NCBI GenBank assembly: GCA_944358525.1
Contig: CALVRI010000005.1
Location: 1-48,473 of the forward strand
DNA: 48,473 nucleotides
Source of the DNA: an uncultured Bacilli bacterium
GTDB taxonomy: Bacteria > Bacillota_I > Bacilli_A > RF39 > UBA660
Reading direction: 5' to 3'
Shown here: positions 6,533 to 15,143 of the stretch, in pieces
Numbering within the stretch: position 1 is the first letter of the stretch
Layout: the number at the start of each line of letters is the position of its first letter
Made by a program: the position numbers and the translations under genes
Notes under the pieces: generated by a model
Told to the model about the DNA's origin: nothing
Database searches by the model: none
What the model saw: the letters and a program-made list of their open reading frames with translations, nothing else

Positions 6533-6745
6533 CAAAAAAATCACATCCATATAAGGACGTGATTTAAACGTGGTACCACCTTAATTTGTAAGTAAAACTT
6601 ACCTCTAAAACTATAACGCGTTACCGATATATCTTTGCATATATAGCTCCTAAGATGAATTCATAAAAGATTATTACTAACTTCCACCACCCGTTAGCTC
6701 TCTATAAATAATTACTTTTATTACTACTTCTTAATCTTCGCTTTT
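6533..6745 (-). promoter_or_regulatory. T-box riboswitch with Phe specifier
   Basis: Minus strand AGAGA and GGTGG stem I motifs, specifier GAA-TTC-A (UUC = Phe, 6657-6659), T-box AAGGTGGTACCACG, terminator aaatcacgtcc/ggatgtgattt plus U-tract. Confidence 0.95.
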
Positions 6746-6805
6746 CAAATTTCAATATCAATTATACCACATTTTTGACATTTTTAAACAAAAAACTAAC
6801 ATAAG

Positions 6806-7066
6806 TTAGTTAAGAGTTTTACTAGAACTTTCCATCACATTTTGAGCTTGATATTCAGCAAGGTGAGCTTTCAAGCTCTCAAGTGTTCCAGGTTCAAATT
6901 TTTGTCCTATTGGCAAATACATCTCAGAAGCAAAAATATTCTCTACACCAATTTCAGGAAAAGCCGAAAATATTTTTTCCTGCATATCAAACACATGAGA
7001 ATTTCCGCCATGTTTTCTATTTTCATAATTGCTATTCATATTGTTAATTACATCAGCTAATACCAT
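6806..7066 (-). CDS. hypothetical protein (86 aa)
   Basis: GGAGG SD inside the end of the upstream gene, TAATG stop/start overlap; no recognisable motif. Confidence 0.7.
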   Translation of the reverse strand: MVLADVINNMNSNYENRKHGGNSHVFDMQEKIFSAFPEIGVENIFASEMYLPIGQKFEPGTLESLKAHLAEYQAQNVMESSSKTLN

Positions 7067-7599
7067 TATTTTACCTCCGCTTCTGCCATGGCTTTTAATA
7101 CCATCTTTGCATCATTACTAAAATAAGCATTGTATAAAACATCGTTTCCGATTACTTTACTAATTAAATTTGTCATAATAATTTCATCTGTAAAAAAATT
7201 ATCTGGGACATCTCCCACTAAATAATTAGTAAGTATCTCTGTATAGCCTTCATTAAGGGCAAGGAGAGAATCACTCTCATCATTAAACCCATAATAATTA
7301 TCTTTAGCACTAATAACACCTAATAAACTATGCATAAGCCAGTGTCTCGCATCCGCTTCAGTAATAAGTCCATAGTTAATTGCTATTTCATTATTATGTG
7401 GAATGTACTTGCACGGCATTTTAACTAAATACATACTTTCCCTTTTTATCTTTAAAGTCTTAAGTCGTTCTTTCAAAGTCGTTAAATCCACATCTTTAAA
7501 TATCTCATGAAAGATTGTAATAAGTTCTAAAAGATTATCTTTAACCTCTAAAGTTAAATTTTCATTACCATCTAGTATGACTTTAACTTCTTCAAGCAT
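7066..7599 (-). CDS. hypothetical protein with a degenerate gluzincin-like signature
   Basis: LMHSLLG where HExxH is expected, then GF...ALNEGYTE; AGGTGA SD and TGnTATAAT upstream. Confidence 0.65.
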   Translation of the reverse strand: MLEEVKVILDGNENLTLEVKDNLLELITIFHEIFKDVDLTTLKERLKTLKIKRESMYLVKMPCKYIPHNNEIAINYGLITEADARHWLMHSLLGVISAKDNYYGFNDESDSLLALNEGYTEILTNYLVGDVPDNFFTDEIIMTNLISKVIGNDVLYNAYFSNDAKMVLKAMAEAEVK

Positions 7600-7740
7600 A
7601 ACTTAATCACCTGGTAAGTATTATATCACACTGTAAAGCAAAAGTATACAATTTTTCCACTTTTTTTTGACATTTATTATACACTTCTAATTTAAATATG
7701 TTATAAAACCCCTTATTTTACAATACTTTCTATACTTTTG

Positions 7741-7794
7741 TTGCGAAAGTATTTATTTTGTTATATAATGTGGAAAAGTGAAAAGTTTTCCACA
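7741..7794 (+). promoter_or_regulatory. sigma-A promoter with a palindromic operator over the start site
   Basis: TTGCGA-N17-TATAAT (7741-7769), then TGTGGAAAA-N8-TTTTCCACA (7769-7794). Confidence 0.65.
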
Positions 7795-7830
7795 GCTTAT
7801 AATAAAGTGTAAAGAAAAAGGTGAAATAAA

Positions 7831-8988
7831 ATGTATCGAAAAACTTATGCATTAATTAATTGTAATACTTTAAAAAGAAACATTCAAAACATTAAAGAAA
7901 ACTATCCTTATAAATATTATATAGGTGTTGTTAAAGCAAATGCTTATGGTCATGGTGACTATATCGTAAATACCTTAATTCAAGGTGGAATAAATTATTT
8001 AGCCGCATCATCCTTAGAAGAATGTTTAAATATCCGAAAAAGAAATGAGAACATTCCAATACTATGTTTAGAACCAATAGATCATGAATTTTTAAATATA
8101 TGTGAAAAAGAAAATATCACCATAACTATTCCTGATTATGAATATTTTAAAAACATAAACTTAAATTTAAATTTAAAAGTTCACCTAAAAATAGATAGTG
8201 GTATGAATCGCTTAGGTTTTAAAGATAAAAATGAAATAAAAAAAGTATATGATACTATCTTAAATTATCCAAATATAACCTTAGAAGGAATATACACTCA
8301 CCTAGGTACTTCAGGTATGTGGGATAGTCACTACGACCACGATTTAAAAAATTTTGAAGATATAACAAGTCTAATTGATTTAAATACTATTCCTATTGTT
8401 CATATTTCTCGTTCACTTACCTTAGTAACTCATCCAATGCCTAAATATGTAACTGGAATTAGACTAGGTATCATAATGTACGGTTTTCCTCAAAAAATAA
8501 ATAAACCATCCGGACTTAGATTAATAAAAAGAAATATGTATTTAAAAAAACATCATATAAGTGACATTACATATGAAAATAATTTAAAACTAAACACCGC
8601 TTTCTCACTTCACACCACCATTATGACCATCAAAAATGTCAAAAAAGGCGAATATGTTGGATATGGAGCAAAATATATTGCTGAAGAAGATATGAAAATC
8701 GCCATTATTCCAATTGGTTTTGCCGATGGACTAATTAAACAATACGAAAATCAAACTGTCAAAATAAATAATAAAGATTATAAAATAATTGGTGAAGTTG
8801 GTATGGACATGACTGCCATTAAAATTGATGATAGTGTAAAACTTAAAGATCATGTTATAATATTTGATGATGCCAAAAAGAAATCAAAAGAACTAGGTAT
8901 CAGTGCTTATCAACTCTTCACAAGCATTACAACTAGAGTACCACGAGTATATGATGAAGATGGTAAACTAACAGAAATAAAATATTAA
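7831..8988 (+). CDS. alr: alanine racemase family PLP enzyme with a divergent substrate pocket
   Basis: VVKANAYGHG (PLP lysine), HLKIDSGMNRLG, RLGIIMYG and GYGAKY intact; atypical HISRS, GFADG and GEVGMDM. Confidence 0.85.
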   Translation: MYRKTYALINCNTLKRNIQNIKENYPYKYYIGVVKANAYGHGDYIVNTLIQGGINYLAASSLEECLNIRKRNENIPILCLEPIDHEFLNICEKENITITIPDYEYFKNINLNLNLKVHLKIDSGMNRLGFKDKNEIKKVYDTILNYPNITLEGIYTHLGTSGMWDSHYDHDLKNFEDITSLIDLNTIPIVHISRSLTLVTHPMPKYVTGIRLGIIMYGFPQKINKPSGLRLIKRNMYLKKHHISDITYENNLKLNTAFSLHTTIMTIKNVKKGEYVGYGAKYIAEEDMKIAIIPIGFADGLIKQYENQTVKINNKDYKIIGEVGMDMTAIKIDDSVKLKDHVIIFDDAKKKSKELGISAYQLFTSITTRVPRVYDEDGKLTEIKY

Positions 8989-9000
8989 AGGAATGATTTT

Positions 9001-10209
9001 ATGAACTTTGAAGTAATAATTATTGGAAGTGATGCAAATGCCTATTACATGGCAAGATGTGTTCACGAATTATATAATAAAAAAGTAAAACTCATCGCCC
9101 ATAAACCGATGAGCTTTGTCAATCACTCTAATATAATTGAAGCAACATATGACTCAAGATTATGGGACATAAATAAATTTGCCGATGCTATGAATGAATA
9201 TGTTAAAAACATAAATGCAGACAAAATAGTATGCATCTCTTCTAATGAAACATATGCTAGAGGGCTAGTTGCTAATAAAAATAAACTAGACAAAAGAATA
9301 GTATTTAACTATGTTGATTTAAACTTTTTAGATAGTCTAATGATGAAAGACAAATTTTATGAAACATATAAAGACTCAGGATTACTACCTAAAACTATCA
9401 TTTATAATTTAAATGATGAACTCAAATTAGATTTTGACTTTCCTATTATTATAAAACCCAATGATGTTATCGATTTTAATCATATTAATTTTGAAGGAAA
9501 GAAAAAAATATATAAACTAAATAATATGGATGAAGTAAATCATACAATTGAAAGTTTTAGAAATAGTAGTTATAAAGGAAAATTAATCATTCAAGAATAC
9601 ATTCCAGGTGATGATAGTAGCCTATTTGATGGTGTAATATATTGTAATTCCAAAGGTAAATGTGAACTTTTTGCTTTTGCTCAAATCGGTCTTCAAGAAC
9701 ATACCGCCAACATGGTCGGTAATGCTGCTTGTTTAATAAACCATTTCAATACAAATGGTTATAATGAAAAAATTATTTTAGAATTTAAACAATTTATGGA
9801 AAAAATAAATTTCAAAGGTATCGCTGAATTAGACATAAAATATGATTACCGTGATAAAAAATACAAAATATTAGAAATAAATGCTCGTCAAGGAAGATGT
9901 AGTTACTACGTCACCGCTGCTGGCTATAACATTGTTAAACTATTTGTTGATGACTTAATTTATAATAAAGAAAAAGAATTTAAAATTGCTGATAAAGAAT
10001 TATTACTAACTTATGTACCTAAAAAAATAATCAAAAAATATGTCATAAACGAAGATTTTAAAAAAGAAGCATTAAAACTTTATAAACAAAAAAAAGTTGT
10101 AAATCCTTTAATTTATAAAAAAGATTTACCATTAAAAAGAATTATATTTTTAATCAGAAAACACTTTAGATATTATAAAGATTATAAAAATGGATATTGG
10201 AAATACTAG
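9001..10209 (+). CDS. ATP-grasp carboxylate-amine ligase, D-aspartate ligase (Aslfm/AslA) family
   Basis: GSDANAYYMARC, IIKP, IIQEYIPGDDS, EHT...GN and EINARQGRCSYY resemble Enterococcus/Lactococcus D-Asp ligases. Confidence 0.8.
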   Translation: MNFEVIIIGSDANAYYMARCVHELYNKKVKLIAHKPMSFVNHSNIIEATYDSRLWDINKFADAMNEYVKNINADKIVCISSNETYARGLVANKNKLDKRIVFNYVDLNFLDSLMMKDKFYETYKDSGLLPKTIIYNLNDELKLDFDFPIIIKPNDVIDFNHINFEGKKKIYKLNNMDEVNHTIESFRNSSYKGKLIIQEYIPGDDSSLFDGVIYCNSKGKCELFAFAQIGLQEHTANMVGNAACLINHFNTNGYNEKIILEFKQFMEKINFKGIAELDIKYDYRDKKYKILEINARQGRCSYYVTAAGYNIVKLFVDDLIYNKEKEFKIADKELLLTYVPKKIIKKYVINEDFKKEALKLYKQKKVVNPLIYKKDLPLKRIIFLIRKHFRYYKDYKNGYWKY

Positions 10210-10224
10210 AAAGGAAGTAAAAAT

Positions 10225-12066
10225 ATGTGTGGATTTTGCGGATATATAAATAGAAAAGAAAAAAGGCACATCAAAGCTATGAATGATATGATTGTCCATC
10301 GTGGCCCAGATGATGAATCTTACTATACTGATGATGAAATAGCTATGGGCTTTAGAAGACTTAGTATCATTGACTTAAAAGGTGGAAGGCAGCCAATGTC
10401 TAATGAAGATGACTCAATGTATATAACCTTTAATGGTGAAATATATAATTTTAAAGAAATCAAAGAAGATTTAATAAATAAAGGCCACATCTTTAAAACA
10501 AATACTGATACCGAAGTTATATTACATGGTTATGAAGAATACAAAGAAAAAATATTAGATAAATTAAGAGGAATGTTTGCTTTTGTAATATGGGATAAAA
10601 ACACTAAAAAATTATTTGGTGCGAGAGATCATTTTGGTCAAAAACCCTTCTACTATGCTAAAATGCAAGGAACATTTATGTATGGCTCTGAAATAAAAAG
10701 TTTCTTAAAACATCCAGATTTTCTAAAAAAAGTCAACAAAGAAGCTTTAAAACCATATCTAACATTCCAAACATCAGTCTTAAATGAAACATTTTTCAAA
10801 AACGTCTATAAATTAAAACCAGGTCATTACTTTACTTATGATTTCAATACTGAAAAGATGGAAATTCAAGAATATTATAAAATCAAATTTGAGCCTAAAA
10901 ATCAAGACTTTGATAATTTAGTAAATGAAATTGATAACACCATTACTAAATCTATCGACTATCACACTATTAGTGATGTTCCAGTCGGCTCTTATTTATC
11001 CGGTGGTATTGATTCATCATATGTTGTAAGTTATTTAAAACCAGATAAAACATTTTCTGTTGGATTTGACTATAAAGATTTTAATGAAGTACCACTTGCT
11101 AAAGACCTATCAGACCTTTTACACATTCAAAATAAAAACGAATTAATAAATGCTGATCATTTCTTTGAAAGTATTGATAAAGTTCAGTATTATGCTGATG
11201 AACCAACAGCTAACCTATCAGCTGTACCACTATATTTCTTATCAAAATTAGCATCTACTGATGTTAAAGTTGTCTTATCAGGTGAAGGTGCCGATGAACT
11301 ATTTGGCGGATACCCAAGTTATAAAGAAGATAAAACATTAACAAAATATAAAAAATTACCTTTATTTTTAAGAAAATTTATAAAAACAATCATCTCACCT
11401 CTTCCAAGTTTTCATGGTAAAAACTTCTTAACTAAAGGTGGTAGTAAATTAGAAGACTATTATGTTGGTGATGCTTTCATCTTTAACAATAAAGAAGCTA
11501 ACAAAATATTAAATGATAACTACAAAAGTGATCTAAAATATCAAGATATCACTAAACCATATTTTGATAAAGTAAAAGATAAAGATGATGTCACCAAAAT
11601 GCAATACTTAGATATGCATTTCTGGCTTCCAAATGACATCTTACTTAAAGCTGATAAAATGAGTATGGCTAACTCTCTAGAACTACGTGTACCAATACTA
11701 GATAAAGAAGTTTTCAAACTAGCAAGTACAATTCCAACCGAATATAAAATATCTCACGATACGACTAAATATGTTTTAAGGCAAGCTGCTTCTAAACGAA
11801 TTCCAGAAGCATGGTACAAAAGAAGAAAAAAAGGTTTCCCTGTTCCAATTATTAAATGGTTTAGAGAAGAAAAATATTATAATATTGCCAAAGAAATGTT
11901 CAAGCAAGATTTTACTAAAGAGTTCTTCGATCAAAAAGCTTTACTTAAATTATTAGATGACCATTATAAAGGCAAGAAAAATAACTGCCGTAAAATTTGG
12001 ACTGTCTATGTATTCTTAGTATGGTATAAAGAATTTTTCATTGATTTTGATAAAATCACAGCATAA
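10225..12066 (+). CDS. asnB: glutamine-hydrolysing asparagine synthetase family amidotransferase (AsnB/AsnH-like)
   Basis: MCG N-terminus, HRGPD, FNGEIYN, RDHFGQKP, LSGGIDSS, SGEGADELFGGY, LELRVP. Confidence 0.95.
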   Translation: MCGFCGYINRKEKRHIKAMNDMIVHRGPDDESYYTDDEIAMGFRRLSIIDLKGGRQPMSNEDDSMYITFNGEIYNFKEIKEDLINKGHIFKTNTDTEVILHGYEEYKEKILDKLRGMFAFVIWDKNTKKLFGARDHFGQKPFYYAKMQGTFMYGSEIKSFLKHPDFLKKVNKEALKPYLTFQTSVLNETFFKNVYKLKPGHYFTYDFNTEKMEIQEYYKIKFEPKNQDFDNLVNEIDNTITKSIDYHTISDVPVGSYLSGGIDSSYVVSYLKPDKTFSVGFDYKDFNEVPLAKDLSDLLHIQNKNELINADHFFESIDKVQYYADEPTANLSAVPLYFLSKLASTDVKVVLSGEGADELFGGYPSYKEDKTLTKYKKLPLFLRKFIKTIISPLPSFHGKNFLTKGGSKLEDYYVGDAFIFNNKEANKILNDNYKSDLKYQDITKPYFDKVKDKDDVTKMQYLDMHFWLPNDILLKADKMSMANSLELRVPILDKEVFKLASTIPTEYKISHDTTKYVLRQAASKRIPEAWYKRRKKGFPVPIIKWFREEKYYNIAKEMFKQDFTKEFFDQKALLKLLDDHYKGKKNNCRKIWTVYVFLVWYKEFFIDFDKITA

Positions 12067-12092
12067 AAGCGCTAGAATTTCTAGCGTTTTTT
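12065..12092 (+). terminator. intrinsic terminator ending the three-gene operon
   Basis: aaaagcgctagaa-t-ttctagcgtttttt. Confidence 0.85.
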
Positions 12093-12324
12093 CTTGTTCA
12101 TTATCTTTTAAAAATAATTAGAAAACCCTAATTATTTAATTTTTCTATTTTACTCAAAGGTCTATCAATTTAAAAATAATTTAAACATAAACATGCCTTT
12201 TAAAATTTTTCTTTGTAGTATAAAATTTATTGTCTAAATCTTCTTTAATCATTTACATATCTATTAATCATTCTTTTTTACCTACATAGATTAATCGACA
12301 TTTTTCTTTTACTTCCTTTTAAAT

Positions 12325-12353: not shown

Positions 12354-12397
12354 GATAACAAAGGATAGATAACAAAAGGAGGTTAATTATCTTATCT

Positions 12398-12525
12398 TAG
12401 CGCCAGGGTCTAAAGACCGACGAGGATGATAGTTATCGAAATATTCGGCGGATGCTATCACGGTGAGAATCGTTAAATATATGACAAAGCATAAAATCAA
12501 TCTTATGTACAAAACATATATTCTA
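12398..12525 (+). ncRNA. glmS ribozyme (GlcN6P-activated)
   Basis: AGCGCCAG cleavage motif at 12399, GACGAGG and TTATCGAA...TTCGGCGGATG core, directly 5' of glmS. Confidence 0.95.
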
Positions 12526-12548
12526 AATTTAGTATAAAGGAGAATTTT

Positions 12549-14351
12549 ATGTGTGGTATTGTTGGTAGCATCAGCACCAAAACAAATATAATACCTATTC
12601 TTTTAGACGGCTTAAAAACCTTAGAATACCGTGGATACGATTCTGCCGGTTTAAGTTATATAAAAGATAGTAATTTAATTATAAATAAAGTAAAAGGTCG
12701 TGTTAAAGACCTTGAAAATCATATATCTAAAGAAAGTAAAGCAAACATTGGAATTGCTCATACTAGATGGGCTACTCATGGAAAAGTAAATGAGATTAAT
12801 GCCCATCCTCATAACGTAGGAAATATTACTATTGTCCATAATGGTATAATTGAAAACTTTAGTAAATTAAAACATAAATTAGAAGAAAAAGGATATAAAT
12901 TTAAATCCGAAGCTGATACTGAAATCGCCGCTGGATTACTAGATTATTATTATAAAAAATATGAAAACATTGATAAAACAATTCAAAAATTTATGAAAAA
13001 AGTTGATGGTAGTTATGCCATATGCATGATAATAAATGATGATCCAAATACTATTTATGTTATTAAAAAAGATAGTCCACTAATTATTGGAACTGGCAAT
13101 CACACCAATTATATTGCTAGTGATGTTCCAGCCATATTAAAATACACCAAAAACTACTATATTTTAGAAGATTATGAATATGGAAAAGTAACAGCTGATA
13201 ATATAACAATTTATGACAAAGAAGGAAATGTTTTAAATAAACAGTTAAAAGAATATCAAGGTAGTGACTTAACAAGCGATAAAGGTATCTACGAACACTA
13301 TATGTTAAAAGAAATCATGGAGCAAAATTCCACCATTAGAAAAACCGTAAATCCATATATAAATAGTATAGATGACTTATTAAAACTACCAGATTTAACA
13401 AAATATGAAAGAATTGATATCATTGCCTGTGGTACTGCTATGCATGCCGGACTAGCTGCTAAATACTTATTTGAAGAATATACAAATACTAAATGCGAAG
13501 TTTTTTTAGCTAGTGAATATAGATACCAAAATAATTTTCTAAATAATAAAGTTTTATCCATATTCATATCACAATCAGGTGAAACAGCTGATACATTAGC
13601 TGCTTTAAAAAAAGTTAAAGAAGAAAAATGTGATACTCTAGGTATCGTAAACGTTAAAGAAAGTTCTATTGCTAGAGCTTTAGATAAAGTATTATACACA
13701 GAAGCCGGAACCGAAATAGCCGTAGCATCAACTAAAGCTTATACATCTCAAGTAGCATTGCTTTCAGTATTAGCTCTCGCCCATGCCTATAGAACAAAAT
13801 CAATTAAAGAAGAAAAAATATTTGAAATACTTGAAGAATTTAGAAATATTACTCAAATATTAAATCCAATTTTAGAAAATACACAAACCTATGAAAACAT
13901 AGCTAAAGAAATATATGAAAAAAATGATGCCTTCTATATTGGTAGAGGTCTAGACTATGCCCTAGCCATGGAAGGATCATTAAAATTAAAAGAGATATCT
14001 TATATTCACAGTGAAGCCTATGCTGCTGGTGAATTAAAACACGGAACTATATCTTTAATCACCAAAGAAACACCAGTATTTGCCTCTGCAACCAATAAAC
14101 ATATAAATGCTAAAACAATTAGTAACTTAAAAGAAGTCATTTCAAGAGGTGCAAACTGTTACTTAATAACTGATGAAGACATTAAAGATGATAGTTTCAA
14201 ACAAATCATAAAAATTAAAAAAGTAAGTATGTTTATTAAACCATTACTTACTATCATTCCTTATCAACTAATTTCCTATTATACAGCTAAATTTAAAAAT
14301 TGTGACATTGATAAACCACGTAATCTAGCTAAATCAGTTACCGTAGAATAA
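12549..14351 (+). CDS. glmS: glutamine--fructose-6-phosphate transaminase
   Basis: MCGIVG, LEYRGYDSAG, HTRWATHG, SQSGETAD, PRNLAKSVTVE. Confidence 0.98.
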   Translation: MCGIVGSISTKTNIIPILLDGLKTLEYRGYDSAGLSYIKDSNLIINKVKGRVKDLENHISKESKANIGIAHTRWATHGKVNEINAHPHNVGNITIVHNGIIENFSKLKHKLEEKGYKFKSEADTEIAAGLLDYYYKKYENIDKTIQKFMKKVDGSYAICMIINDDPNTIYVIKKDSPLIIGTGNHTNYIASDVPAILKYTKNYYILEDYEYGKVTADNITIYDKEGNVLNKQLKEYQGSDLTSDKGIYEHYMLKEIMEQNSTIRKTVNPYINSIDDLLKLPDLTKYERIDIIACGTAMHAGLAAKYLFEEYTNTKCEVFLASEYRYQNNFLNNKVLSIFISQSGETADTLAALKKVKEEKCDTLGIVNVKESSIARALDKVLYTEAGTEIAVASTKAYTSQVALLSVLALAHAYRTKSIKEEKIFEILEEFRNITQILNPILENTQTYENIAKEIYEKNDAFYIGRGLDYALAMEGSLKLKEISYIHSEAYAAGELKHGTISLITKETPVFASATNKHINAKTISNLKEVISRGANCYLITDEDIKDDSFKQIIKIKKVSMFIKPLLTIIPYQLISYYTAKFKNCDIDKPRNLAKSVTVE

Positions 14352-14548: not shown

Positions 14549-14863
14549 ATGTCTAATATGACAACTTCCATAAGTGTCCAAATAGACAAAAAAGATAAAG
14601 AACAAGCAACTGCTATACTCCAAAAATTAGGTGTTAGTATGAGTGGACTAATCAATATGACCTTAAAACAACTAATACTTAAAGGTGGTATACCGTTTGA
14701 TATTACACTTCCTAAAGAAAATATCGACTTAACTCAATATTTTACACAAGAAGAGCTAGAAAATACTGCTAAAGAACTTTCATATATTGAAAAACATCCA
14801 GAAGAATATAAAAGCTATAACACTACTAAGGAACTAAAAAAGGATTTATTATCTAATGACTAA
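14549..14863 (+). CDS. type II antitoxin, RelB/DinJ family
   Basis: RHH-like SISVQIDKKDKEQATAILQKLGVSMS, GIPF and C-terminal YxTxxEL; overlaps the toxin gene. Confidence 0.88.
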   Translation: MSNMTTSISVQIDKKDKEQATAILQKLGVSMSGLINMTLKQLILKGGIPFDITLPKENIDLTQYFTQEELENTAKELSYIEKHPEEYKSYNTTKELKKDLLSND

Positions 14864-15143
14864 TTATAAAATCAAATATTCTAAAGAATTTAAAAAAAAT
14901 CTAAAAAAAGTAATAAAACAAGGTAAAAATATCGACAAATTATTAGAAGTAGTAGATATGCTTTCAAAAAAAGAAATACTTGATCCTAAATATAATGACC
15001 ATCCATTATACAATGATAAAAGATTTAAAAAATGTAGAGATTGTCATATTGAACCAGATTGGATTCTTATATATAAATATTTAGAAAACGAAATTGTTTT
15101 ATTATTAGTAAATACAGGAAGTCACAGCAATATTTTAGAATAA
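14856..15143 (+). CDS. yafQ: type II toxin, YafQ family mRNA interferase
   Basis: FKKNLKK, YNDHPL, RDCHIEPDWILIY, TGSHS. Confidence 0.9.
   Translation: MTNYKIKYSKEFKKNLKKVIKQGKNIDKLLEVVDMLSKKEILDPKYNDHPLYNDKRFKKCRDCHIEPDWILIYKYLENEIVLLLVNTGSHSNILE

Follow-up and report, generated by a model that had tools for sequence, protein, structure and literature searches.

A racemase, a ligase and an amidotransferase gene beside glmS

The DNA studied here (the window; 48,473 nucleotides) is a contig, CALVRI010000005.1, of the metagenome-assembled genome GCA_944358525.1 from an uncultured Bacilli bacterium. The genome is 80% complete, 1.31 Mb in size and about 28% G+C, and the sequencing runs that hold the stretch are for the most part chicken-gut metagenomes. 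Three consecutive genes of the window are our subject: they encode a racemase of the alanine racemase (Alr) fold, which depends on pyridoxal 5'-phosphate (PLP), an ATP-grasp carboxylate-amine ligase (LigA) and an AsnB-type glutamine amidotransferase (Table 1). The first two genes form an allele that is exchanged, within the genus, with the classical pair of a ligase and the Asp/Glu racemase RacD. The reading that a neofunctionalised Alr-fold racemase and a divergent ligase of the Aslfm family would stand in for RacD and its ligase is well supported by the gene and protein comparisons described below.

An earlier note on the window, made from its letters, had described three genes 12-15 bp apart that adjoin glmS and share one promoter and one terminator. 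The open reading frames, which are mechanical calls, bear out the arrangement, with 12 nt between the racemase gene and ligA and 15 nt between ligA and the AsnB gene, and a ribosome-binding site of the GGTG/AGGA type precedes each of the three start codons. The terminator has its counterpart in a hairpin that closes the unit. The single promoter for the three genes is only plausible, because this A+T-rich region shows no excess of promoter-like sites (47 found in a consensus scan against 52 +/- 5.9 expected).

Table 1. Features of the three-gene unit and its surroundings (positions in the window).
Feature	Position	Strand	Basis or remark
T-box leader	6550..6747	-	RF00230, 118.6 bits; upstream of pheS-pheT
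86-aa open reading frame	6806..7066	-	next after the gene of the 177-aa protein
177-aa conserved protein	7066..7599	-	without Pfam or NCBIfam match
Promoter-like site TTGCGA-17-TATAAT	7741..7769	+	consensus scan; upstream of the racemase gene, in DNA shared with RacD-type relatives
Exchanged cassette (ligase-linked Alr and ligA)	7795..10207	+	blastn breakpoints 7794 and 10208
Ligase-linked Alr, fold-type III PLP racemase	7831..8988	+	385 aa; Pfam/TIGR00492 and alignment
ligA, ATP-grasp carboxylate-amine ligase, clade A	9001..10209	+	402 aa; family tree, model fold
AsnB-type glutamine amidotransferase	10225..12066	+	613 aa; GATase (glutamine amidotransferase) and Asn_synthase domains
Intrinsic-terminator-like hairpin	12065..12091	+	12-bp stem and T run; closes the three-gene unit
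glmS ribozyme leader	12388..12532	+	RF00234, 83.4 bits; ahead of glmS
glmS	12549..14351		glmS-specific ribozyme leader upstream
RelB antitoxin / YafQ-type toxin pair	14549..15143	+	genes overlap by 8 nt; just 3' of glmS

Exchange of the cassette in situ within the genus

Thirty-six genomes of the genus were searched and, with the window's own, 37 were compared; nearly all genomes used in this study are metagenome bins, and completeness is known only for those that were not reached via loci. Twelve of the 37 carry only a cassette of the window's kind (type A; ligase 76-97% identical), 23 carry only a second kind (type B; 34-38%) and two, G016 and G035, carry both; the window's ligase and the type-B ligase (LigB) share 37% identity. 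In all type-A loci that were examined, the ligase gene is immediately preceded by one for an Alr-fold protein. In type B the gene directly downstream of the ligase encodes a protein of 220-245 aa of the Asp/Glu racemase family (TIGR00035, 192.5 vs 93.1). Both pairs occupy a common slot, between the genes for PheT, PheS and a conserved 177-aa protein on one side and those for AsnB and GlmS on the other. In this slot, beside the gene of the 177-aa protein, the order ligB-(RacD)-AsnB is found in G009, G012, G016 and 20 further loci of the genus, RacD being missing from three of 23 ligB loci of relatives. The suggestion that an Alr-fold gene sits in RacD's place is thus borne out by the sister genomes.

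The limits of the exchange can be drawn closely. The type-B genome G018 encodes flanking proteins 94-99% identical to those of the window, and its DNA aligns with the window at 96% identity up to position 7794 and at 93.7% from position 10208 on (blastn). The segment between these breakpoints has no DNA counterpart in G018, G009 or G023, save for a stretch of about 67% identity within the ligase genes (G018, G009). The exchanged unit is therefore exactly the racemase and ligase genes, behind a shared upstream region and ahead of a shared AsnB gene. In a tree of two flanking proteins from 44 loci (23 of type A, 19 of type B and two of type B without RacD), built with a quick IQ-TREE run and supports from the SH-like approximate likelihood ratio test (SH-aLRT) only, the cassette type changes at least ten times, and well-supported branches make at least seven of the changes unavoidable. 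Since racemase and ligase are swapped together, both alternatives put forward in the earlier note, a replacement of RacD and a new bridge chemistry, stay in play.

The two genomes with both cassettes differ in how they hold them. G035 has the two alleles on contigs of 2.7 kb and 2.2 kb, as would result from an assembly bubble where a population is mixed. In G016 both modules are complete: a second full module, Alr'-ligA'-AsnB'-MurE', lies at 7497-13161 of contig C22 (loci L021/L150), and the RacD-type cassette is at the PheS locus. The MurE' of the second module has DDLH in place of DNPR, the motif that we take to mark MurE proteins of the diaminopimelate type.

The AsnB-type gene is kept unchanged beside either cassette, the protein of the window being 98% identical to that of G018. 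It begins MCG, with the nucleophile Cys after Met, matches PF13537, PF13522 and PF00733, and scores 538 bits on TIGR01536 (cut-off 267). Across the fetched loci, an AsnB gene lies directly 3' of ligA in 114 of the 155 ligase genes that are linked to an Alr of the window's kind. Outside the genus, AsnB splits into module-specific clades; the AsnB of the genus, which serves both cassettes, groups with RacD-linked AsnBs at 42% support only. Some module loci (L123, L135, L066 and others) hold two AsnB-type genes, one of which in L123 belongs to the RacD-linked AsnB clade, and this hints at two separate amidation steps.

A ligase-linked subfamily of Alr-fold proteins

The racemase of the window has both domains of alanine racemases (PF01168, 147 bits; PF00842, 106 bits), and its best matches in the PDB are Alr enzymes (E ~1e-42); on the VanT model NF033131 it scores 187, below the cut-off of 460. 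All six motifs singled out in the earlier note (VVKANAYGHG, GYGAKY, HISRS, THLGTSG, GFADG and GEVGMD) are present in the translation. Numbered by alignment to the Alr of G. stearothermophilus, they correspond to K39, Y265', a change of N203 to R, of D171 to G, of Y284' to F and of R309' to E. Residue roles are given here after passages in published descriptions and by analogy. The protein retains K39, K129, R136, H166, S204, R219, Y265', M312', D313' and Y354. The entryway of eight residues (inner layer Y265', Y354, Y284' and A170; middle layer R309', I352, R290' and D171) is not intact: the middle layer is altered at all four positions (D171G, R290'K, R309'E and I352S), and other changes are N203R, Q314'M, A170S and E172M, with Y284'F in this protein and an insertion of about 20 residues past the MYG motif. 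A passage in a structural study describes the residues of the inner and middle layers as strictly conserved across the alanine racemase structures then known (PMC3146814).

This pattern recurs in 128 distinct ligase-linked Alr proteins, whose pairwise identity goes down to 32%. K39, R136, R219 and Y265' are found in every one of them, S204 in 124, Y354 in 123 and K129 in 120. The same loci and genomes supplied 13 canonical Alr proteins for comparison. Position 171 is Gly in 123 of the 128 proteins and Asp in 13/13 canonical ones; position 203 is Arg in 119 and Lys in eight, against Asn in 12/13; position 314 is Met in 121, against Gln in 13/13; position 309 is Asp or Glu in 99, against Arg in 13/13; and position 352 is Asn, Ser or Thr in 127, against Ile or Val in 13/13. 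One branch, with a support of 100, splits the 128 from the 13. Neither R/K203 nor M314 is encoded by any of 20 additional Alr-fold genes that have no linked ligase and come from another 15 genomes of the class, so that these residues occur in none of the 33 unlinked proteins that make up the whole canonical set. Judged by these alignments, the ligase-linked Alr proteins are a distinct clade of Alr-fold proteins. The earlier note had asked whether the substitutions vary together with the gene order. They do: they are near-invariant in the ligase-linked proteins, and the worry that the same substitutions might be common in Alr proteins without a ligase does not hold for R/K203 and M314.

Racemase type and ligase clade

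Relatives of LigA numbered 170 and at least 579 in two scans of one-genome-per-species contigs. Among the best 80 of each, which were read, the carriers are nearly all uncultured gut bacteria, namely Bacilli or 'Tenericutes'-labelled ones and Clostridia (Acutalibacteraceae, Oscillospiraceae, Lachnospiraceae). A third scan, centred on Paenisporosarcina indica as the sole cultured organism from the first two, added Planococcaceae, Lysinibacillus and RacD-linked Clostridia. The 229 distinct ligases from all fetched loci fall into three clades in a FastTree phylogeny (branch supports 99, 99 and 84). Clade A holds 140 ligases, 131 of which have a ligase-linked Alr directly upstream; clade B, made up of putative D-Asp ligases, holds 46, among them 38 with RacD directly downstream; and clade P consists of 43 ligases, all of the Planococcaceae type, with no adjacent racemase. 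All 131 Alr-linked ligases thus lie on one side of a branch with support 99 and all 38 RacD-linked ones in another clade, also with support 99, and no mixed pair of racemase type and ligase clade occurs among the 229. Nine clade-A ligases are exceptions to adjacency: two are at contig edges, four have the Alr gene in the locus at a place missed by the adjacency rule (further upstream in three, overlapping the ligase start in one), and three have a gene of this Alr type elsewhere in the genome, where it adjoins MurE or a MurJ/SpoVB-like flippase. The identity matrices of the ligase-linked Alr and LigA correlate with r = 0.84 over 124 pairs, to which shared ancestry contributes.

MurE or the MurJ/SpoVB-like flippase often adjoins the module in other loci, and glmS adjoins it here; the MurE proteins next to the module in other lineages have different motifs, for example DDLH, EDAR and EDPR. 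The module also occurs in very small genomes of 1.0-1.5 Mb. The MurE and flippase context, together with the interchangeability with the RacD pair, places the module in peptidoglycan synthesis.

The fold of LigA is clearer from its predicted structure than from its sequence matches. The Pfam matches, to ATP-grasp families, are all below threshold (PF15632, 24.2 vs 29.1; PF02655, 20.7 vs 23.2), a PDB sequence search with LigA alone returned no meaningful match, and a PDB profile search returned only marginal alignments to VanA and biotin carboxylase (E ~0.1), which we used just to place position 276. The AlphaFold2 (AF2) model, with a predicted local distance difference test score (pLDDT) of 91.6, is assigned by Foldseek to ATP-grasp ligases with probability 1.0; the neighbours are L-amino-acid ligase, PylC, PurK, biotin carboxylase and Ddl, and the closest solved structure is the L-amino-acid ligase 3VOT. 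K152, K169, D278, E292, N294 and R296 are invariant in 34 members of the ligase family. The nearest Atlas clusters bear the automatic name 'D-aspartate ligase', and LigA is 33-37% identical to the RacD-linked ligases of G009, G012 and G049 (216-230 bits, E ~1e-70).

A role of LigA as a substitute for Ddl was considered and rejected, a Ddl-like gene being present in the genome. The attempt to infer the donor amino acid from the ligase clade failed as well. Paenisporosarcina and Planococcus have one clade-P ligase each, 77-82% identical to each other, and the walls given for them in a passage of one source are L-Lys-D-Asp for the former and L-Lys-D-Glu for the latter (PMC5786688). Ligase clade does not predict the donor, because ligases as similar as these serve both D-aspartate (D-Asp) and D-glutamate (D-Glu) walls.

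D-amino-acid supply in the genus

The window contains no match to PF01177, in keeping with the statement of the earlier note that no RacD-type gene lies in it. In the 80%-complete genome as a whole, PF01168 matches the ligase-linked Alr gene only, and racD, murI and dat were sought with PF01177, TIGR00067 and PF01063 without a match. Since the genome is just 80% complete, the PF01168 and PF01177 searches were repeated on G087, a circular type-A relative of 1.54 Mb, with the same result: no PF01177 match even at E <= 1, and the ligase-linked Alr as the only PF01168 match. The search for a second canonical alr and for racD that the earlier note had called for thus found neither. Cassette-type RacD was likewise not found in the 28 (25 + 3) other ligA genomes examined. 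We rejected the idea of a double system with RacD in module-bearing genomes; the three TIGR00035 matches there are unlinked, 26-32% identical to cassette RacD and without a neighbouring ligase. A canonical Alr is present as well in 11 of 25 other module-bearing genomes, and in at least nine loci it lies inside the same cluster, in the order ligase-linked Alr-ligA-AsnB-flippase-Alr.

The type-B genomes of the genus are poorer still in Alr-fold genes. No PF01168 match was found in 19 of the 23, the single-contig G009 included. The matches in the other four are a VanT-G serine racemase within a complete vanG-type cluster (G012), a canonical Alr (G031), a 222-aa frame with an internal stop (G004) and a weak partial match (G001). 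The G012 cluster, at 1320000-1332000 of contig C1 (L027), resembles those for glycopeptide resistance: VanG, VanT-G (with a score of 519), VanR and VanW are above NCBIfam cut-offs, and the VanS, VanXY and VanT-membrane models match below theirs. D-amino-acid aminotransferase was found in none of the 36 genus genomes, and a D-amino-acid transaminase bridging D-alanine (D-Ala) and D-Asp was rejected for that reason. Searches of G000, G007, G026, G087 and the complete genomes G009 and G012 detected neither a glutamate racemase (TIGR00067/PF01177), beyond the cassette RacD of the last two, nor a canonical alanine racemase. MurC, MurD, MurE, MurF and a Ddl-like gene are present nevertheless. The lack of matches points to scavenging or unrecognised enzymes as the source of D-Glu and D-Ala in the genus.

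In three genomes, G005 (L276), G024 (L280) and G034 (L279), ligB is followed directly by AsnB with no RacD between, and PF01177 and PF01168 have no match genome-wide. In G000 the sole Ddl-like gene is unusually long, at 400 aa. Immediately next to it, within C2:26344-29154, is a MurF-like gene of 536 aa whose score of 242 falls short of the MurF cut-off (288.6); C3 encodes a canonical MurF.

Proposed pathway and alternatives

We propose that the ligase-linked Alr and LigA may be a dedicated racemase-ligase pair making a D-amino acid for a peptidoglycan branch, and that the substrate of the Alr would be an amino acid other than alanine, likeliest L-Asp; from the comparisons of sequence and gene order, we put the chance that this whole proposal is right at about even. 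In such a pathway (Table 1 gives the genes) the PLP-dependent Alr would turn L-Asp, or another non-alanine L-amino acid, into its D-form. LigA, as a relative of Aslfm and AslA, would activate a carboxyl of the D-amino acid and couple it to an amine of the stem peptide, residue 3 of which is here probably meso-diaminopimelate. The AsnB-type enzyme would then amidate a carboxyl left free. It is very probable that the Alr feeds LigA. As for what it supplies, D-Asp can be named only tentatively and D-Ala is likewise a tentative possibility; D-Ser, D-Asn or another amino acid is rather unlikely, and D-Glu improbable.

Several observations point toward an acidic donor, D-Asp ahead of D-Glu. AsnB remains intact with either cassette. 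It forms module-specific clades outside the genus, and G016 has one AsnB per module, from which it may be argued that the branch residue is what AsnB amidates. The ligase-linked Alr has lost the acidic pair D171/E172, and no cassette-type RacD was found with ligA in the other genomes examined. Ligase clades B and P include the ligases of organisms whose walls have D-Asp or D-Glu branches, among them Paenisporosarcina and Planococcus of clade P (PMC5786688). The near-invariant positive charge at position 203 lies beside the phosphate-binding Ser204, in a region that the substrate side chain probably faces; this geometry is deduced from a passage according to which the side chain is directed toward position 354 (PMC4517790).

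Other observations speak against an acidic donor, and several of them favour a different account, in which the ligase-linked Alr is still an alanine racemase, LigA attaches D-Ala (or the near-isosteric D-Ser) to the stem peptide and AsnB amidates, for example, the carboxyl of diaminopimelate. The protein passes the equivalog model for alanine racemase, TIGR00492, with 262.7 bits against a cut-off of 168, all catalytic and PLP-binding residues are retained, and so is the inner gate of Tyr265' and Tyr354, in 128 and 123 of the 128 proteins. Tyr354 is described in part of one study as blocking larger substrates in Alr (PMC4517790). The change of R309' to Asp or Glu puts a negative charge at the entry. 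In many genomes, moreover, this is the only Alr-fold gene: it is the sole full-length one in 14 of the 25 other module-bearing genomes, the sole one in all 12 type-A-only genomes of the genus (barring a 222-aa YggS-like frame in G021) and the only one in the circular G087, which fits a retained alanine racemase activity. On the side of the ligase, position 276 is Glu in 100% of clade A and Asn in 100% of clades B and P; it aligns, in a marginal profile alignment (E ~0.1), with the catalytic Arg of VanA and Ddl. Glu276 could bind an alpha-ammonium beside the activated carboxyl, and by its conservation it hints at a donor other than that of the D-Asp and D-Glu ligases. PylC, a structural neighbour, links the alpha-carboxyl of a D-amino acid to the epsilon-amine of Lys. 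The MurE of the window's genome is of the diaminopimelate type (DNPR motif; NF001126, 392.6 vs a cut-off of 373), and the characterised D-Asp ligase acts on L-Lys; AsnB could thus act on diaminopimelate here, as the enzymes AsnB1 and LtsA do. Finally, strict coupling of racemase and ligase together with repeated switching is more easily explained if the two cassettes make different products, and hence different walls, and the two complete modules of G016 would be redundant if both made D-Asp. We nevertheless consider this D-Ala account doubtful. It leaves a subfamily-wide remodelling of residues strictly conserved in true Alr in need of another reason, and some of the same clusters and genomes encode a canonical Alr as well. 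RacD-type sister species lack a detectable source of D-Ala, so that its supply is evidently not limiting in the genus, and the AsnB clades and the one AsnB per module in G016 argue for amidation of the branch residue. A D-Ala branch is not known to us from any peptidoglycan.

One could also suppose that the ligase-linked Alr is a mere housekeeping alanine racemase that happens to lie in a cell-wall cluster, with LigA a D-Asp or D-Glu ligase fed by scavenging or an unrecognised racemase and no functional coupling between the two. Its status as the sole Alr-fold gene here and in the circular relative, the clustering of MurE, flippase and glmS around it, its position apart from ligA in three genomes and the three genus genomes with ligB-AsnB but no racemase match, where D-amino acids can apparently be scavenged, would all fit. 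We judge this improbable: an Alr of this type neighbours 131 of the 140 clade-A ligases but not a single one of the 46 in clade B or of the 43 in clade P, the exchanged DNA is exactly racemase plus ligase, the identity matrices correlate (though shared ancestry contributes), and the seven or more exchanges have moved the Alr jointly with LigA, which would be intolerable if it were essential. For the earlier note, a sole alr would have told against a new function. The gene is formally just that, being the only Alr-fold gene of the genome, and the point loses its force, because 19 of 23 RacD-type genomes gave not one match to the Alr fold and there have been repeated exchanges of the cassette, whose racemase seems bound up with its ligase. 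A role outside peptidoglycan, in making a small D-amino-acid amide or dipeptide metabolite or in decorating another envelope polymer, seems to us very improbable. Sets of a racemase, an ATP-grasp enzyme and an AsnB-type protein do occur in small-peptide pathways too, and the closest solved structure to LigA is an L-amino-acid ligase; yet the cassette is interchangeable with a pair known from wall synthesis, MurE, the MurJ/SpoVB-like flippase and glmS are its recurrent neighbours, it is kept in genomes of 1.0-1.5 Mb, and no exporter or immunity gene is seen among the open reading frames of the unit. Returning to the dedicated racemase-ligase pair, what stands of the neofunctionalised Alr proposed in the earlier note is a distinct, ligase-linked subfamily in RacD's slot; its other half, a substrate of Asp or another non-Ala residue, stays a proposal, with the gate kept and the alr model passed.

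Relation to known systems and significance

The unit resembles the systems that make the D-Asp/D-isoAsn branch, Racfm/Aslfm of Enterococcus faecium and RacD/AslA with the amidotransferase AsnH of Lactococcus lactis, which likewise combine a racemase, an ATP-grasp ligase and an AsnB-type amidotransferase. LigA is of the Aslfm/AslA type by its homology to the RacD-linked ligases of sister genomes, which is the comparison used here in place of the E. faecium or L. lactis sequences, and its slot is that of the relatives' RacD-ligase pair. The differences are several. RacD is a cofactor-free, two-cysteine Asp/Glu racemase, whereas the ligase-linked Alr is a PLP-dependent protein of the Alr fold; the gene order here is racemase then ligase, and in the RacD system ligase then racemase; LigA falls in a separate clade (support 99) from the RacD-linked ligases, has Glu276 rather than Asn and carries a 5-residue insertion relative to them. 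None of the 131 Alr-linked clade-A ligases has RacD directly downstream, and the host MurE is of the diaminopimelate type here but of the Lys type in the E. faecium/L. lactis system. The mechanism of AslA is treated in a passage of a published source (PMC13631041).

With biosynthetic Alr (G. stearothermophilus, 1SFT; S. pneumoniae, 3S46) the ligase-linked Alr has in common the fold, both Pfam domains and the catalytic and PLP residues, and it differs from them at all middle-layer entryway residues, at 203, 314', 170 and 172, and by the insertion after MYG. Precedents for the recruitment of the Alr scaffold to another amino acid are found among its PDB matches: VanT (Ser), Bsr/lysine racemase and histidine racemase (5ZL6). 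VanT is moreover linked to a ligase, VanG, as the Alr of the window is to LigA. These enzymes open the pocket by replacing Tyr354 (Asn in VanT-like relatives, a small residue in Bsr), whereas in the ligase-linked Alr Tyr354 is retained and the substitutions lie elsewhere. The ATP-grasp fold of LigA is shared with 3VOT and PylC (4FFL/4FFM), at a Foldseek template modelling (TM) score of about 0.55; LigA is only 13-15% identical to them and stands in another biological context.

In open-access full text, subscription journals and supplements being outside our reach, we came across no publication that couples a racemase of the Alr fold with a ligase of the Aslfm type. Tentatively, the ligase-linked Alr may be the first aspartate or acidic-amino-acid racemase on the alanine racemase fold, with its co-evolved ligase as a mobile 'wall-type' allele exchanged with the RacD cassette. 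If it does racemise Asp or another non-Ala residue, a much-studied drug-target fold would gain a new specificity, and the residues responsible would be pinpointed (203, 171, 309', 314' and 352). If the acidic-racemase reading is true, gut Firmicutes would vary the chemistry of their walls, or the route of its supply, by means of this one locus, and they would do so in the absence of other matches to the alanine racemase, glutamate racemase and D-amino-acid aminotransferase families searched. The module is widespread, and for the lineages that carry it the wall chemistry and D-amino-acid metabolism predicted from genomes are probably incorrect or have gaps, because the genes are annotated only as 'alanine racemase' and 'carboxylate--amine ligase' or 'hypothetical'. 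The precise and repeated swap of two cassettes at one locus is a rare allelic variation in the synthesis of the peptidoglycan stem peptide, and it bears on the specificity of phage lysins and receptors and on the recognition of muropeptides by the host.

Neighbouring features and RNA-library contigs

In nearly all loci of the genus that extend far enough to the left, the 177-aa protein (59-100% identity) borders the cassette on that side. Two metatranscriptome runs from a single study (X17 and X18) include contigs of about 10 kb that carry the genes for this protein, the ligase-linked Alr, LigA and AsnB from a relative of about 92% identity (7400-12092), and the match ends at 12092, directly past the terminator. 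We do not take these RNA-library contigs as evidence of an operon transcript, because they also span divergent genes and DNA carry-over is possible. A joint of 7921 to 12097 in one RNA-library contig was disregarded, just 21 letters lying on one of its sides. In runs X15 and X16, several loose ends (7901-7924 and 12068-12117) hint that variant alleles occur side by side.

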